A stretch of DNA of 22,496 nt from a virus (Duplodnaviria; Heunggongvirae; Uroviricota; Caudoviricetes), in the IMG/VR virus record IMGVR_UViG_3300000301_000103; one strand, written 5' to 3'. The position numbers and the translations under genes are program-made. The notes under the pieces were generated by a model, which worked only from the letters and a program-made list of their open reading frames with translations, did not search any database and was not told the origin of the DNA. Positions 1,515 through 9,437 of this stretch are shown in pieces; the first letter of the stretch is position 1, and each line of letters begins with the position of its first letter.

Positions 1515-1520
1515 TAAAGA

Positions 1521-1548
1521 AAACCCGCCTGTTGGCGGGTTTATAAAG
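1521..1548 (+). terminator. Stem-loop after dnaE (AAACCCGCC-TGTT-GGCGGGTTT followed by TATAAAG)
   Basis: 9-bp GC-rich inverted repeat with 4-nt loop 7 nt after the stop; the T-tract is short, so weak as an intrinsic terminator. Confidence 0.45.
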
Positions 1549-1704
1549 AATTATGGCGCTTGTTGAGGAAGTCACTCCTCTTACGCACTTTGTTTTGCCA
1601 TGCCGGCAGTTAGCTTCTGCCTTTGACTATTCATGCGGCAACCCCGCATTTCGCCACAATGGGCAATTCACTTTTATGGAATAAACTGGCCGTTGTGTCG
1701 ATTT

Positions 1705-1731
1705 AATTAGCATGGCCTTACCATGCTAATT
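1705..1731. other. Perfect 11-bp inverted repeat hairpin (AATTAGCATGG-CCTTA-CCATGCTAATT) between convergent genes
   Basis: Exact inverted repeat read from sequence; no U-tract on either side, so possibly a protein site or RNA stability element rather than a terminator. Confidence 0.35.
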
Positions 1732-1817
1732 TATTCAACTTGTACAATCCTACAAATCTATCCACTCAGGCTTACACCGTCTTCGTTATTGTAGAAATGA
1801 GGATCATCAGCGTTGAA

Positions 1818-2033
1818 TCAGCTTAGAGCAACGACATTTGCTGCTGCTGGGCCTTTAGCCCCATTCTCGATAGAGAATTCGACCTGCTGGCCTTCTTCCA
1901 AAGTGCGGAAATTATTACTCTGAATTGCCGAAAAATGTACAAAAACATCTTTACTGCCATCAGCAGGAGAAATAAAGCCAAAGCCTTTATCAGAGTTAAA
2001 CCATTTTACTAAACCAGTCATTTTATTAGACAT
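1818..2033 (-). CDS. Cold shock protein, CspA family (71 aa)
   Basis: Translation [71 protein letters not shown] matches the CspA pattern including the RNP-like KGFGFI and VFVHF motifs. Start set at the internal ATG (2031-2033) preceded by TAAGAAGGTAATATCT, not the longer ORF-track start. Confidence 0.9.
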
Positions 2034-2250
2034 AGATATTACCTTCTTAATTTTGTGAGCCACATAGTGCGGCGAGAATTTGATCTGTATAGATTGGGAC
2101 TTACTTAGGCACTTAAGGAGGAGACTCACGAAGAAGGGAAATCAGAAGATAACACTGAACTGAGACTGCTTTACTAAAACTGCTTACATAAGGTCTGTCT
2201 TGCAAACCAACGATGCTATTAACGCATACCCCTTCTTTTCATGCAACCTT
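2034..2250 (-). promoter_or_regulatory. cspA-type promoter and long 5' leader with cold-box-like sequence
   Basis: On the minus strand: AT-rich upstream element, TTGCAT (-35, plus 2241-2246), 18-nt spacer, TTAATA (-10, plus 2217-2222), then a ~175-nt leader. Its start (UUGGUUUGCAAGACAGACC...) and end (AUUAAGAAGGUAAUAUCUAUG) resemble the E. coli cspA leader as I recall it. Confidence 0.5.
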
Positions 2251-2337
2251 TATTTTTCAAAGATAACTAATTTTTGTCACCATTGGTTTAGTAAACGTTA
2301 ACGAACCAGACGATGCCAGACACCTTTACAGAGAACA

Positions 2338-2359
2338 GATGCCCGCCAATTGGCGGGCA
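2338..2359 (-). terminator. 22-bp perfect palindrome ATGCCCGCCAATTGGCGGGCAT just downstream of the minus-strand HTH gene
   Basis: 9-bp GC-rich stems with AATT loop, 4 nt after the stop at 2363-2365; flanking T-run is modest. Confidence 0.5.
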
Positions 2360-2362
2360 TCA

Positions 2363-2986: not shown

Positions 2987-3295
2987 TCATTTACAACGAT
3001 CAACCATTCGTTTGATCTGTTTGGCATGGTTTTCGGGATTACCCGGAGTCGACCATACGCTCATTTGGNNNNNNNNNNNNNNNNNNNNNNNNNNNNNNNN
3101 NNNNNNNNNNNNNNNNNNNNNNNNNNNNNNNNNNNNNNNNNNNNNNNNNNNNNNAGTTTTGTGTTCACCTTCTGGATTACCGCATCGCAGTCTGCAAAAA
3201 CAATGTGCAGCACCACCAGCAGCTACCCAGATCCAGCCTTTACTTAATGCATAGTCAATGGCTGCTTGAATATGCTTATTCGGATGTTGCTTCAT
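2987..3295 (-). CDS. Small hypothetical protein, first gene of a two-gene module (interrupted by N-run 3069-3154)
   Basis: ATG at plus 3293-3295 preceded by GGAGG and a sigma70-like promoter; N-term MKQHPNKHIQAAIDYALSKGWIWVAAGGAAHCF. Middle of the protein is hidden by Ns. Confidence 0.5.
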   Translation of the reverse strand: MKQHPNKHIQAAIDYALSKGWIWVAAGGAAHCFCRLRCGNPEGEHKTXXXXXXXXXXXXXXXXXXXXXXXXXXXXXQMSVWSTPGNPENHAKQIKRMVDRCK

Positions 3296-4098: not shown

Positions 4099-5203
4099 AT
4101 GTCTAAGACATTACTTGATTTGCTTAACAAAACTCGTGAAGACATTGCCGCCAAACGTGGCAACAACGTTGATCTGACTCGCTTAAAAGACGGCGTCAAC
4201 TATATCCGCATCTTCCCGAATAAAGACGACCCAAACGGTAAGTTCTTCCAGACTTTCGGTATGCACTACGTTAAGTATCAGAACGAGGAAGGTAAAGAAG
4301 CAACCAACGCTTATATTTGTGAGCAACATACTCACGGTCGCGCTTGTCAGCTATGCGAAATGGTGATGGAAGGTCGCGCTCGTCACAAGGGTAACAAAGC
4401 AATGGAAGAACGCATCGGTCAAATGCGTGCCACTCCTCGCTACCTGGTCAACGGCATTCTTTCTGCTCGTGAGGATTTCGCAGATGCTGAGAAATGCCAG
4501 TTAATCGAGCTGCCGTCTACTGTATTCGATGATATCTGCAAAGCAATCACCGAAGACATCGCTGATGATATCGGCAATCCACTGAGCAAAGAGGAAGGCT
4601 ACGCATTCCTGATTAAACGTACTGGCTCTGGTCGCGATACCAAATATGACGTCTCGCCTAAGCGTAAAGTCTACAAAGGCGATATCGAAGATAAATTCTG
4701 GAACACCCAGCATGATCTGATCGCATACGCAAATCAGGCTGATGAAACTCGTCTTCTGTCGACAGTTCGCACTATGGGTCGTCTGATTGGCATCGCTGCA
4801 CCAACTGCCGCAGCATCTGCACCAGCAATTTCCTCAACCGCGAAAACATCGGCTGCGGCACTACCTGGATTTGGCTCTGTCACTGGTCATACAGAAGGAG
4901 CGACGGCTGTAGCAACCGCGCACACACCGGCTTCTGAACCAACCAGTCTGGTTGATGAAGAAATCCTCCGTGCCGTTGAAACTGAATTTAAACCAGAGGC
5001 AAGTTCCGCTGCCGTTGCCGTATCAGTCAAAGAGTCTGAAGCAGTCGCAGCGACATCTGTAGCAACCGCATCTGCGACGGAAGATNNNNNNNNNNNNNNN
5101 NNNNNNNNNNNNNNNNNNNNNNNNNNNNNNNNNNNNNNNNNNNNNNNNNNNNNNNNNNNNNNNNNNNCTGGATGACCTACTGAGAGAGCTGGACTCTCTG
5201 TAA
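4099..5203 (+). CDS. Single-stranded DNA-binding protein, T4 gp32-like (zinc-binding), with Ala/Ser/Thr-rich linker and acidic tail
   Basis: ATG preceded by AAGGAG; YIRIFPNKDDPNGKFF resembles the gp32 N-terminal region; Cys-x3-His-x5-Cys-x2-Cys (CEQHTHGRACQLC) fits the gp32 zinc site pattern. After N-run 5086-5167 the tail LDDLLRELDSL ends at TAA 5201-5203 in a different frame. Confidence 0.7.
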
Positions 5204-5263: not shown

Positions 5264-6363
5264 GTGAATTATCTCTTCGTAGATGGCAATAGCCTGGGCT
5301 ATTACCACCAACAATCTGACAAATTGCACAACGGCGAAATGGAAGTACAGGCTGCTTTCGGCTTTGTTANNNNNNNNNNNNNNNNNNNNNNNNNNNNNNN
5401 NNNNNNNNNNNNNNNNNNNNNNNNNNNNNNNNNNNNNNNNNNNNNNNNNNNNNNNNNNCGTTATGCCTCCATCCTCCATGCCCGGCCTATGATTCTTTGG
5501 GATGGATTTAGTGACAAGCGTCGCGACTTTTACCCGGACTACAAAGCAAATCGCGACGACGATCCTGATATGAAAAAGATGAAGGAAGGCTTTGCTATCC
5601 AGAAGCCATACATCCTCAAAATGATGACCGCGCTTGGAGTTACCCAACTCATTGCAAAAGATGCAGAAGCGGATGATCTGGCCGGGCTGCTGGTATCCCG
5701 CATGGCACCGCAGCCAACCGTTGAACACATCTATCTGTTAACAGGCGATAGCGACTGGCTTCAGTTAGTTCGTGAAAACGTAAGCTGGGTAAGCCTGCGT
5801 GAAGACGCCAAAAACAAGCAGGTTAATTTTGAGCAATTTGCGGAGCTGACAGGATTCGCCACGCCTCGCGCATTTTTGGAAGCAAAAGCATTACAAGGCG
5901 ATAAATCGGACAACATTAGCGGTGTTGGTGGCATTGGTGCTGGCGGTGCGAAAGAGCTGCTGCATGNNNNNNNNNNNNNNNNNNNNNNNNNNNNNNNNNN
6001 NNNNNNNNNNNNNNNNNNNNNNNNNNNNNNNNNNNNNNNNNNNNNNNNNNNNNNNNNNCAACGATGGTACGCGGCATCAACGACGGCTCAATCGTGGTTG
6101 ACAAAGGACGCCATAAGACCGCCTTCAACAAACTAGCGAAGAATGCCTTCAACGAGAAAACAGGCTGTCGAATGCTCGAAGCGTTCAAGAGAAACATCAC
6201 GCTAATGAACCTGATTGAGACGAAGTTTCCGCCTACCGAAATCGAAACAATCAAAGGCAATCGTGACGTGAAAGCATTCGAGCAACTGTGCTACGAGCTG
6301 AATTTCCGTTCGTTCCTTGAAGACCTTGAAGTGTTTGTTCTTCCATTCGAAAGGTATTGCTAA
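5264..6363 (+). CDS. 5'-3' exonuclease / flap endonuclease (T4 RNase H / T5 D15 family)
   Basis: GTG start 8 nt after AAGGA gives MNYLFVDGNSLGYY. Motifs YKANRDD, EADDLAGLL, TGDSDWLQLV and H3TH GDKSDNISGVGGIG are present. N-runs 5370-5458 and 5967-6058 interrupt it; the frame changes after the second; stop TAA 6361-6363. Confidence 0.8.
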
Positions 6364-6704
6364 TGCTTAAATCGATTATTAATGGCGCTACAACCACCCC
6401 CACCCAACTGGCAAAAGAGATTGTCTTTTATCACGGTGAGTACGCTGTCATCGCACTGCCGTCAATTCTAGGCGCTGCCGGAATGAAAGCGACAGATCGC
6501 GAGTTTGGATTAGTCAGCGAGCAGGTCGTAAAAATCCTCGCTCGTGTATCCAGACTCCTTAATCACGATGCGATTGTATTCGACGAATCCGCCGCTTTAA
6601 NNNNNNNNNNNNNNNNNNNNNNNNNNNNNNNNNNNNNNNNNNNNNNNNNNNNNNNNNNNNNNNNNNNNNNNNNNNNNNNNATCAACGAAACAAAAGGAGC
6701 CTGA
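6363..6704 (+). CDS. Hypothetical protein (about 110 aa, C-terminus uncertain because of N-run 6601-6680)
   Basis: ATG overlaps the FEN stop (TAATG), preceded by GAAAGG; no recognisable motifs. Confidence 0.45.
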   Translation: MLKSIINGATTTPTQLAKEIVFYHGEYAVIALPSILGAAGMKATDREFGLVSEQVVKILARVSRLLNHDAIVFDESAALXXXXXXXXXXXXXXXXXXXXXXXXXXXINETKGA

Positions 6705-6706
6705 TC

Positions 6707-9437
6707 ATGGCAAAAGGAAAATCCGCACTGGCACTTGCTCTGAAAAAGAAAATCGGTAGCAACGACGAAATTCAGAAAGTAACTCATTGGATTGACACAG
6801 GCTTTCCTCCGTTAAACAAAGCTATTTCCGGTCGTTACGATGGCGGTTTCCCATGTGGTCGTATCGTAGAAGTATTCGGGCCACCAAGCGCGGGGAAATG
6901 TGTTACCGCAGACACCATGCTGCTGACGGAGCGTGGAATGGTAACAGTGAAAGAGTTGTTTGAGATTGAAGGGTACAAAGCGACATGCACTACTCGCGAT
7001 GTAGAGCATAACGTTGGACTCATCAATGAAAATGGCGTGATAGAGAAGACCTCACACCTGACATGGAACAACCGTCGCAAATTCAAGCGTATTAAGCTGG
7101 CATCAGGCGGTTATATCGAGGCTACGTTCCGTCACCCAATCCGTGTGGTTGACGACTTAGGTAATGTCGTCTGGCGACATGCTGAAAAAATCAGTGTAGG
7201 CGACACGATTCCTTCAATGGTTGGCACACATCAATTCGGCGATCAGCACCTGGATGCCAATATCGCAAAACTGATGGGCTATTTAATTGCTGACGGATAC
7301 GTGGCCTCTGAAAATTCAGTGAATTTTTCTAACACAGATCCTTTCATCAAGGATGAGTACTACCGCCTCATTTCGCTGGTATCAGACAAGATGCCAGTTG
7401 CGAGAAAACATAACGGCTCGGAAGACCATGTGCTGTTTAGCAAAGAGGTGCGTTCGCTGCTTTTTAAAGAATATGGTCTGGAGTATGAGAAAGCTGCTGG
7501 CAAGCAGGTTCCGTTGAGTGTGCGTCGCGCCAATAGCGAGGCTCAAATTGCATTCCTTCGCGGCTACTTTGAGCTGGAATGCCACGTCAATGATGGTCGC
7601 TGCATTGAGGTTGTGAGCGCGAGTGGGCTGCTGCTACAGCAAATTCGCCTCATGCTCCTGAATCTGGGGATTACGTCAACTATCTCTGAAAAACACGTCG
7701 CGGGTTATGAAAATACATATTACCGGCTGTCATTCAGTGGCTCTAATTACGACCTTTTTCTGTCAACGATTGGTTTCGAATCTCCGGCACGTTTATCAGT
7801 GGCAACCAAACGGGACATTGGTTTTGACCGCACTTACTCAGGCTATGTTCCGCACATCAGCGGCTTAGTGAAATCACTCNNNNNNNNNNNNNNNNNNNNN
7901 NNNNNNNNNNNNNNNNNNNNNNNNNNNNNNNNNNNNNNNNNNNNNNNNNNNNNNNNNNNNNNNNNNNNNNNNNNCACCCGTGAAGACTACGCTCTGGTAG
8001 ACCACGTTATTGGCCGCGGCGATCGTGTCGGAATAGACAAACTGCGAGAAATCTATGTCTCCTTCATTGGCAGAAAGAATCGTTTTAACGAGCATCTGTT
8101 TGCACAACTGGCAGCGGTAATTGGCTCTAACTTGTTCTACGACGAAGTCGTGGCTATTGAGGAAGGTGAAGCACCAACGTTCGACGTAGCGATGCCGGAA
8201 ACACACTCNNNNNNNNNNNNNNNNNNNNNNNNNNNNNNNNNNNNNNNNNNNNNNNNNNNNNNNNNNNNNNNNNNNNNNNNNNNNNNNNNNNNNNNNNNNN
8301 NNNNNNNNGCCACAACACATTCCTTGCAACAGCAGCGATGATCTCCGCTCAAAAACAAGATGGTCTGGCGGTATTCCTCGATCATGAAAACAGTTTTGAC
8401 GTTGGCCTGGCTGCAGCCAATGGCCTGAACGCAGATGAGGATGACGGTCAGTGGGTATACAAGCANNNNNNNNNNNNNNNNNNNNNNNNNNNNNNNNNNN
8501 NNNNNNNNNNNNNNNNNNNNNNNNNNNNNNNNNNNNNNNNNNNNNNNNNNNNNNNNNNNNNNNNNNNNNNNNNNNNNNNNNNNNNNNNNNNNNNNNNNNN
8601 NNNNNNNNNNNNNNNNNNNNNNNNNNNNNNNNNNNNNNNNATCGTGGCTGACTCTCTTGCGTCTATGGTTCCGAACTCCAAAGCCGAGAAGTTCGAAAAG
8701 ATGGCTGAAGGCACAGCCAAAGACAAAGATCAGCTAAACATGAACGACAATACGGCACTGGCTCGTGCGACGAGNNNNNNNNNNNNNNNNNNNNNNNNNN
8801 NNNNNNNNNNNNNNNNNNNNNNNNNNNNNNNNNNNNNNNNNNNNNNNNNNNNNNNNNNNNNNNNNNNNNNNNNNNNNNNNNNNNNCACGCAAATACAACG
8901 CCTGCATCATCTTCTTGAATCAGGTTCGCACAAAAATCGGTGTAATGTTTGGCGACCCTACTACGTCGCCAGGTGGAGATTCACCGAAGTTCTACGCTTC
9001 TGTACGTATCCGTCTTGGTGCATCGGTGATGAAGGATGGTAAAGAGAAGATCGGCCAGGACGTAGGCGCAGAATGCATCAAAAACAAAGTTGCACCACCG
9101 TATGGCAAATGCACCTGGAAATTCTACTTCGATCCTACTCGTGGCCTCGACGTTATCGAGTCGCTCGTCGAGTACATGCTGGAAGAAGGATACCTGCCAA
9201 AGAACGCCAGCGGTCGAGTAGAAATTGGTGACAAGAAATACACCAAATCACAAATCGTCGAGATGTATCGGGAGAAGCCACNNNNNNNNNNNNNNNNNNN
9301 NNNNNNNNNNNNNNNNNNNNNNNNNNNNNNNNNNNNNNNNNNNNNNNNNNNNNNNNNNNNNNNNNNNNNNNGCGGCTTTACAGGCAATCGACGACCGGAG
9401 ATCAAAAGACAATCCCACCGAGTCAGTAGAAGAGTAA
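6707..9437 (+). CDS. recA: RecA-family recombinase interrupted by an intein
   Basis: ATG preceded by AAAGGAG. Walker A GPPSAGK is followed directly by an intein; C-extein has IIFLNQVRTKIGVMFGDPTTSPGGDSPKFYASVRIRL, the RecA core signature. Four N-runs lie inside the gene and frames shift across three; stop TAA 9435-9437. Confidence 0.8.
6899..8316 (+). other. Intein with LAGLIDADG homing-endonuclease domain, inserted in the RecA P-loop
   Basis: Starts with Cys right after GPPSAGK (CVTADTMLL, block A); TxxH block B (EATFRHP); LAGLIDADG-like LMGYLIADGY and IAFLRGYFELE; block F-like TFDVAMPETH; ends HN followed by Thr (cac aac aca at 8311-8319). N-runs 7880-7974 and 8209-8308 lie inside. Confidence 0.7.

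Follow-up and report, generated by a model that had tools for sequence, protein, structure and literature searches.

A cspA-type cold-shock gene cassette on an SSU5-like phage-plasmid, with a candidate structured RNA in its 3′ untranslated region

Why would a mobile element carry a cold-shock gene, and how much of the host's temperature-responsive control travels with it? The question is raised by a csp gene in the virus record IMGVR_UViG_3300000301_000103 of IMG/VR (Caudoviricetes), a stretch of 22,496 nucleotides to which we refer as the window. A first-pass annotation had described this gene as a mobile-element-encoded CspA homolog that retains a cspA-like promoter and a long regulatory leader. 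We consider it likely that the gene belongs to a self-contained accessory (moron) unit, which encodes a cold-shock RNA chaperone of the class-I CspA/B/G/I type under standard cspA-type control. The carrier is an SSU5-like phage-plasmid, and the 3′ untranslated region (UTR) of the unit also holds a candidate four-helix RNA element. The coordinates of all features are collected in Table 1.

The coding sequence (CDS) predicts a small protein that matched the cold-shock domain (CSD) model of Pfam (PF00313) with 115 bits against a cut-off of 27. Among the NCBIfam models, the CspA subfamily (NF007679) was matched with 140.2 bits against a cut-off of 130, and CspG (NF007378) with 146.6 bits against a cut-off of 144, just passing it. 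Both RNA-binding motifs, RNP1 (KGFGFI, residues 16–21) and RNP2 (VFVHF, residues 30–34), are identical to those of CspA/B/G/I, and the predicted product is a CspA-family protein with its RNA-binding motifs intact. Aligned with the K-12 paralogs, it is 83% identical to CspG, 82% to CspB, 81% to CspI and 73% to CspA, and only 46–50% identical to CspF and CspH, which are not cold-inducible. The first-pass description of the protein as close to E. coli CspA therefore stands at the level of the CspA-type CSD family, but the nearer relatives are CspB, CspG and CspI rather than CspA itself. Downstream of the AUG, the pattern AAAATGACTGGT.T.GTAAAATGGTT is invariant in the window, cspA, cspB, cspG and cspI, so that the gene has the downstream box of its host counterparts.

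The promoter was assessed by the architecture shared among cspA, cspB, cspG and cspI in place of a generic sigma-70 scan; the latter, run on the window, did not call the csp promoter, because TTGCAT agrees with TTGACA at only 3 of 6 positions. The arrangement common to the four K-12 genes, AAAATAA-N3-TTGC-N16-TG-N2-TTAAT, occurs once in the window (2256..2218, minus strand) and in none of 100 shuffles. The AAAATAA of its UP-like tract is invariant in cspA/B/G/I and in every phage-plasmid copy, and the extended -10, ATGCGTTAAT, is identical in cspB, cspG and cspI as well as in the phage-plasmid copies. The promoter had initially been read as TTGCAT-18-TTAATA with an AT-rich element upstream. 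These letters are literally present (2246–2241 and 2222–2217), but alignment with cspA/B/G/I gives a 17-nt spacer, and the homologous reading becomes TTGCAT (2246–2241), 17 nt, GTTAAT (2223–2218), with the TG of the extended -10 at 2226–2225. The AT-rich element (2258–2247) is also present, but it is clipped by the span of 1818–2250 that had been proposed for the unit, and at the other end this span omits the whole 3′ UTR of about 300 nt.

The putative 5′ end of the transcript was placed at 2211–2209, to which position 1 of the Rfam model RF01766 (cspA thermoregulator) aligns, as do the 5′ ends of cspA and cspB; Adams et al. cloned cspB with a primer that begins at GTCGGTTTG. This gives a leader close to the ~175 nt estimated previously. 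RF01766 matched 2211..1793 over model positions 1–428 with 185.7 bits (gathering threshold 78; E = 8.5e-50). Since the model includes a well-conserved CDS, the leader alone (2211..2034) was searched separately and yielded a truncated match to model positions 1–159 (28.4 bits, E = 8e-6). Every phage or phage-plasmid csp gene tested matched the same model, with scores of 79–211 bits. A blastn search of 5,426 complete E. coli genomes with the segment from the -10 through the CDS recovered chromosomal cspB (75%, E ~1e-56 to 1e-59) and cspG (73%, E ~1e-47). The alignment of the leader to csp leaders and to RF01766 is thus significant both at full length and for the leader by itself.

When the consensus pairs of RF01766 were mapped on the window, 86 of the 110 alignable pairs were canonical, including all six of the cold box, 19 of 23 leader-to-leader pairs and 24 of 32 pairs in the long-range helix between leader and CDS. 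The leader is accordingly predicted to carry a cold-box hairpin, a long-range leader-to-coding helix and a helix covering the ribosome-binding site. The cold box itself, GGTTTG..ACAGAC, is invariant across the paralogs. At the other end of the leader, the translation-initiation region AAGAAGGTAATATCTATG resembles TAAAGGTAATACACTATG of cspA. Both of the likenesses seen by eye in the first pass, that of the 5′ part of the leader to the cspA cold box and that of its 3′ end to the cspA initiation region, were borne out by these comparisons.

The carrier of the gene was identified from its similarity to known elements. The 1.2 kb around csp is 99.9% identical to Escherichia phage Cyrano, which is the pLF82 phage-plasmid of E. 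coli LF82, and 100% identical to dozens of E. coli plasmids of ~95–114 kb that are typed as non-mobilizable; altogether, 63 plasmids match this region at 99% or more. The entire window is 98.8% identical to Cyrano, and it aligns to Salmonella phage SSU5 at 82% identity across the replication and recombination genes. What had been called a mobile element can thus be specified, from its similarity to Cyrano/pLF82 and to SSU5, as an SSU5-like phage-plasmid. Phage-plasmids of this type are common in clinical E. coli and Klebsiella. Cyrano has been described as SSU5-like, with ~5.5 copies per cell in LF82 (PMC9928086). We found csp in 238 plasmid records, comprising phage-plasmids of E. coli, Klebsiella, Enterobacter and Citrobacter and large Pantoea plasmids, and the phage-plasmid copies among the matches listed are annotated as cspG. 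About 91 of the 5,426 complete E. coli genomes carry this version of the gene.

Comparison of related elements delimits the unit as a cassette of ~740 bp running from promoter to terminator (2259..1516, minus strand). Its own terminator, with which the shared cassette ends, lies ~275 nt downstream of the CDS and faces the stop of the convergent dnaE gene at 1514. A second terminator, belonging to the preceding gene, lies just upstream of the UP-like tract and is predicted to shield the csp unit from transcription that arrives from upstream. At this locus, SSU5 carries SSU5_053 in place of csp; in Klebsiella pJN2-26, csp stands beside a homolog of SSU5_053, and the hicAB-like genes are missing. 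Three further SSU5-like contigs (L114, L136 and L142) have exactly the block 1516–2259 in common and different neighbours. The discrete shared block, the flanking terminators and the varying neighbours therefore point to a promoter-to-terminator moron in a variable spot of the backbone. The features by which morons are recognized are present here, namely a promoter and a terminator of its own and presence or absence among otherwise collinear relatives.

We compared the E. coli copy with that of Klebsiella pJN2-26 and obtained identities of 90%, 100% and 52% at codon positions 1, 2 and 3, respectively. The leader is 85% identical (87% in the cold-box part), well above the 52% at third codon positions, and is therefore under purifying selection, which acts on both the Csp protein and the leader; conservation of the leader above silent sites argues for its function. 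The same figures bear on the possibility that the cassette is a neutral passenger, that is, prophage or chromosomal DNA gained by recombination and unused by the element. The lack of the cassette in SSU5, the varying neighbours among phage-plasmids and its resemblance to cspB of the K-12 Qin prophage, 3′ UTR included, would all fit such an origin. The cassette is nevertheless intact in phage-plasmids of E. coli, Klebsiella, Enterobacter and Citrobacter that are ~18% apart in DNA, and the contrast between fully conserved second codon positions and third positions at 52%, together with the conserved leader, makes neutrality very improbable.

The surroundings of the gene allow another explanation, in which csp is used mainly at 37 °C as a factor for growth resumption, a plasmid or phage RNA chaperone or an antiterminator, and the leader provides autoregulation and fast turnover instead of sensing temperature. 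For instance, the protein could help late phage genes, or the replication and recombination genes next to it, to be expressed. In favor of this idea, the cassette sits within a replication/recombination module, with dnaE on one side and uvsY/ssb/exo/recA-like genes on the other, the csp genes of lambdoid phages lie between the Q antiterminator and the lysis genes, models of the Csp family are named antiterminators, and cspA is plentiful early in growth at 37 °C (PMC9947658). The unit, however, has insulating terminators on both sides and converges with dnaE, which places it outside any phage operon; SSU5 replicates without csp, and the complete set of class-I cold-shock signals has been retained under selection. 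We therefore regard predominant use at 37 °C as unlikely.

A third explanation, that Csp is the effector of a defence system comparable to the CSD effector of retron Se72, was rejected as barely credible. It was suggested by a weak match of the protein to the NCBIfam model retron_eff_Se72 and by the position of csp next to a hicA/hicB-like pair. The match reaches 53.6 bits and stays below its cut-off of 82, whereas the CspG and CspA models pass theirs; in addition, no reverse transcriptase or retron non-coding RNA adjoins the gene, and its leader is that of a cspA thermoregulator.

Several observations weigh against the cspA-type reading and limit how far it can be taken. In the window, 24 of the 110 consensus pairs of RF01766 are non-canonical, and the terminal hairpin of the model, directly after the CDS (model positions 397–425), is deleted in the alignment. 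The upstream box is reportedly defined, by Yamanaka et al. in 1999, as the 13-nt GCCGAAAGGCACA before the Shine-Dalgarno (SD) sequence. This box of cspA/B/G/I is replaced in the window by a longer hairpin, GCCGCACUAUGUGGC; the sequence at this place, GCCGCACTATGTGGCTCACA, retains the GCC/GGC stem and has a longer stem-loop where the GAAA loop would be. The expanded hairpin is common to all phage-plasmid copies, and in the Klebsiella copy (GCCGCG..UGUGGC) the pairing is preserved by reading. Partition functions computed with ViennaRNA at 37 and 15 °C gave unchanged accessibility of the SD and AUG, a result that carries no weight, since the cspA, cspB and cspG controls were unchanged too and the cspA positive control thus shows no switch either. 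As to expression, strong expression of cspA itself is seen at 37 °C too, early in growth (PMC9947658), and "cold-specific" may be too narrow a description. At the level of sequence, the earlier reading that temperature-responsive control is intact is supported: the promoter, leader and cold box are in place, although the upstream box is altered and the terminator after the CDS is absent.

Also on this side of the balance, we found no expression data for the phage-plasmid csp, and the LF82 transcriptome table does not contain the gene. In the ENA record of Cyrano (L001, OV696614.1), no CDS for csp is annotated between CYRAN_49 and CYRAN_50 (the equivalent of 6668–6883), and the gene is therefore missing from the published table of moron expression in LF82. 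The lack of csp in this reference record is an annotation gap that deserves to be flagged.

By homology with cspA and cspB, we infer that the phage-plasmid csp is cold-induced. At 37 °C, its transcript would be made but would be very short-lived and partly terminated within the leader; Rho-dependent 3′ ends have been mapped in the cspB and cspG leaders (PMC7815308). After a temperature downshift, the mRNA would be stabilised, adopt a translation-competent fold and be translated preferentially. The fold of cspA mRNA at 37 °C differs from that below 20 °C, in which the SD is exposed and 30S is bound better, and the half-life of the mRNA increases from ~12 s to ~20 min after cold shock (PMC9947658; PMC6386945). 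The Csp pool would feed back on the leader, and CspA is known to act on its own mRNA (PMC9947658; PMC6386945). Because the plasmid is multicopy, at about 5 copies per cell in LF82, the host circuit would gain both Csp dosage and additional cold-box leaders, and this would plausibly help the lysogen, and hence the element, on leaving the warm gut. The finding as such, an accessory cassette under selection that provides SSU5-like phage-plasmids with a cold-shock gene and its host-type control, is of modest importance. It implies that these elements may adjust the host response to leaving the warm gut by adding cold-box leaders to an autoregulated circuit.

Mobile-element csp genes with a cspA-type control region are already known from cspB and cspI of Qin, and the window gene fits plainly into this class, departing from it in minor details specific to its lineage. 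In K-12, cspB, cspF and cspI lie in the Qin prophage between a Q-like antiterminator and the lysis genes, and the active lambdoid phages Tritos and 2H10 have the same csp layout; cspB and cspI of Tritos are expressed as morons in LF82 lysogens (PMC9928086). With Qin cspB and its counterparts in Tritos, 2H10 and PhiR42_1, the window gene shares 82% of the protein sequence, the -10 ATGCGTTAAT, the cold box, the leader architecture and the match to RF01766. The likeness to Qin cspB extends to the temperate-phage setting and to the order of the 3′ UTR, in which a conserved post-stop block is followed by the four-helix element (~79% identical) and the terminator. Lambdoid cspB, however, stands between Q and the lysis genes with a divergent cspF partner, whereas the window csp stands beside dnaE on a plasmid-like prophage without cspF. 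The leader of Qin cspB measures ~161 nt and has the canonical upstream box GCCGAAAGGC, in contrast to ~178 nt and the expanded hairpin in the window, and its -35 is TTGCTT rather than TTGCAT.

The other relatives differ in complementary ways. The likeness to cspA and RF01766 comprises the -35 TTGCAT, the UP-like tract, the extended -10, the full-length model match and the SD context AAGGTAATA; the proteins are 73% identical, and cspA has its terminator directly after the CDS instead of the ~300-nt 3′ UTR of the window, besides an unaltered upstream box. The highest protein identity (83%) is to cspG, which is also the RefSeq name of the window gene, but by context the two are not orthologs: on the chromosome, cspG precedes ymcF-ymcE-gnsA and forms a pair with cspH, and its locus lacks the four-helix 3′ element. 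The csp of Klebsiella pJN2-26 belongs to the same locus class next to dnaE, with an 85% identical leader bearing the expanded hairpin and an RF01766 score of 188.6 bits, but it has no four-helix element and ends in a short 3′ UTR with a terminator of its own. A literature search found no paper on the phage-plasmid csp copy, and the LF82 prophage paper does not mention the gene.

To our knowledge, nearly all work on how csp mRNAs are regulated has dealt with the 5′ end. The 3′ UTR of the present unit came to attention through megablast against phages, in which the CDS and ~300 nt downstream aligned after cspB in Tritos and HannyBb; the alignment of the downstream part showed a conserved block with apparent compensatory changes. 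Pattern scans found the element in more than 150 viral contigs. In a collection of one genome per species, it was found in 29 contigs of Escherichia, Shigella, Enterobacter, Kluyvera, Kosakonia, Phytobacter, Leclercia, Raoultella, Atlantibacter, Superficieibacter and Pseudescherichia. The carriers include prophages and phage-plasmids, and csp and the element occur together in many enterobacterial prophages. Nearly always, where enough upstream DNA exists, a csp open reading frame (ORF) ends 130–220 nt upstream on the same strand, and the element follows at least three divergent Csp subtypes. Further copies are located at L003:5554-5677 (K-12 Qin, after cspB), L008:3376-3499 and L012:1491-1613.

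RNAalifold analysis of 24 distinct variants predicted four helices, a closing stem enclosing three hairpins. Covariation supports the predicted structure: 97.7% of cells are paired on it, compared with 23–64% with slid partners; 8 pairs are changed on both sides (1–3 with slid partners), and the covariation score is 0.279 (at most 0.097). None of 500 shuffles reached the observed values for cells paired, cells changed on both sides or covariation score, and 8 pairs changed on both sides were attained in 14 of the 500. In 17 of the 24 sequences, one pair is a G-U, which is compatible with the csp strand alone. One of the hairpins has an invariant 7-nt loop, AAGCUAA, and a single-stranded motif is invariant as well, with the reservation that the variants were gathered with patterns fixing two motifs, so that the invariance of those motifs is partly by construction. 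A covariance model (R1), built from the alignment of these variants with an effective number of independent sequences as small as 1.34, gave exactly one match on the window, at 1668..1545 on the minus strand (121 bits, E = 1.6e-27), and none at K-12 cspA, K-12 cspG, SSU5 or Klebsiella pJN2-26.

Rfam 15, searched with permissive filters, gave no match over 1668..1545 at E <= 10 apart from terminator-type chance matches, and none of 11 related loci had a gathering-level Rfam match at the 3′ element. A literature search on a cspB 3′ UTR RNA likewise found no paper on a four-helix element. Protein coding was rejected as an explanation of the conservation: a 1-nt indel in the window disrupts the small ORFs of the sense strand, a 43-aa antisense ORF (1553..1684, plus strand) does not keep its frame across 43 variants, and the G-U pairs favor the csp strand. 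The segment 1668..1545 may be the earliest recognized example of a so far undescribed class of structured RNAs tied to horizontally mobile csp genes, a proposal that we regard as evenly balanced.

As our best guess, the element either stabilises the 3′ end against cold-shock exonucleases or gives rise to a small RNA from the 3′ UTR. How long the cold-shock mRNA lasts could be determined by the element, either as an obstacle to PNPase, RNase II or RNase R or as a platform bound by ProQ or Csp proteins; another possibility is that processing releases from it a small RNA acting in trans. If functional, the element would matter more than the cassette itself, as a handle on how the very unstable csp mRNAs are stabilised or recycled.

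Table 1. Predicted features of the csp cassette and its borders, listed from the promoter to the terminators (window coordinates)
Feature	Coordinates	Strand	Remarks
AT-rich UP-like tract, GAAAAATAAAGG	2247..2258	minus	Directly upstream of the -35
-35 hexamer, TTGCAT	2241..2246	minus	Same as the cspA -35 (K-12 alignment)
Extended -10, TGcGTTAAT	2218..2226	minus	17 nt after the -35 hexamer
5′ untranslated leader, 176–178 nt	2211..2034	minus	Putative start site at 2211–2209
Cold-box hairpin, GGUUUGCAAGACAGACC	2192..2208	minus	6/6 consensus pairs
Hairpin at the upstream-box position	2059..2073	minus	GCCGCA-CUA-UGUGGC instead of GCC-GAAA-GGC of cspA/B/G/I
Shine-Dalgarno, AAGG	2042..2045	minus	8 nt before the ATG; aligns with AAGG of cspA
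csp CDS	2033..1818	minus	ATG to TGA, 71 aa, cold-shock-domain protein
Downstream-box region	2027–2014	minus	Inside the csp CDS
Conserved post-stop block, ACAATAACGAAGACGG..GCCTGAGTGGA	1761..1792	minus	Also in Qin/Tritos cspB and the Klebsiella phage-plasmid copy
Candidate four-helix RNA element	1545..1668	minus	~115 nt, between the csp stop and the terminator
Element stem P1	1661–1652 with 1558–1549	minus	Closing stem around three hairpins
Element hairpins	1649–1633, 1622–1604, 1580–1565	minus	RNAalifold
Invariant single-stranded motif, AAAGUGCGUAAG	1591–1580	minus	Within the four-helix element
Intrinsic terminator of the csp unit	1521..1542	minus	AAACCCGCC-AACA-GGCGGGUUU then UUUCUUUAUU; terminator scan
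Intrinsic terminator of the upstream hicB-like gene	2338..2361	minus	10-bp stem, 8 GC pairs, T-rich tail

Upstream of csp, the segment 2363–3295 on the minus strand corresponds to a pair annotated as HicB/HicA-like in Cyrano. This pair is variable among SSU5-like phage-plasmids, being present in some and absent from others (L007, L114). Neither protein matched Pfam at E <= 0.001, one of them being partly masked by N. Runs of masked bases (for example, ~1254–1337, 3069–3154, 5086–5167 and 5370–5458) break several ORFs of the window, including those of dnaE, the hicA-like gene, the ssb-like gene and the exonuclease; the region 1500–2360 is free of such runs.

Within the 3′ UTR, the post-stop block is kept in the Klebsiella phage-plasmid copy although that copy lacks the four-helix element. 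Between the block and the element, a perfect 9-bp hairpin, TTAGCATGG-TAAG-CCATGCTAA, lies at 1707–1729; only the E. coli phage-plasmid lineage has this hairpin, and no T-run follows it. A match of this hairpin to mir-2187 was discarded as spurious (27 bits against a threshold of 67).

The element also varies among its carriers. In some lineages, its closing stem is directly followed by a U-run. In Raoultella lignicola (L179:4460-4629; 87 bits), the 5′ half, made up of the 5′ arm of P1 and P2, is replaced by tandem GCCTGAAA repeats, and this copy looks decayed or remodelled. A contig labelled as a Veillonella parvula metagenome-assembled genome (L195) carries an E. coli-type csp 3′ element with 138 bits, probably through a binning error. 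Matches to the Rfam small RNA STnc100 occur ~0.4–1.2 kb downstream of csp and its 3′ element at L012:2773-2974, L102:1093-1286 and L150:11234-11363, and in L173 csp adjoins SraC/RyeA-SdsR/RyeB.

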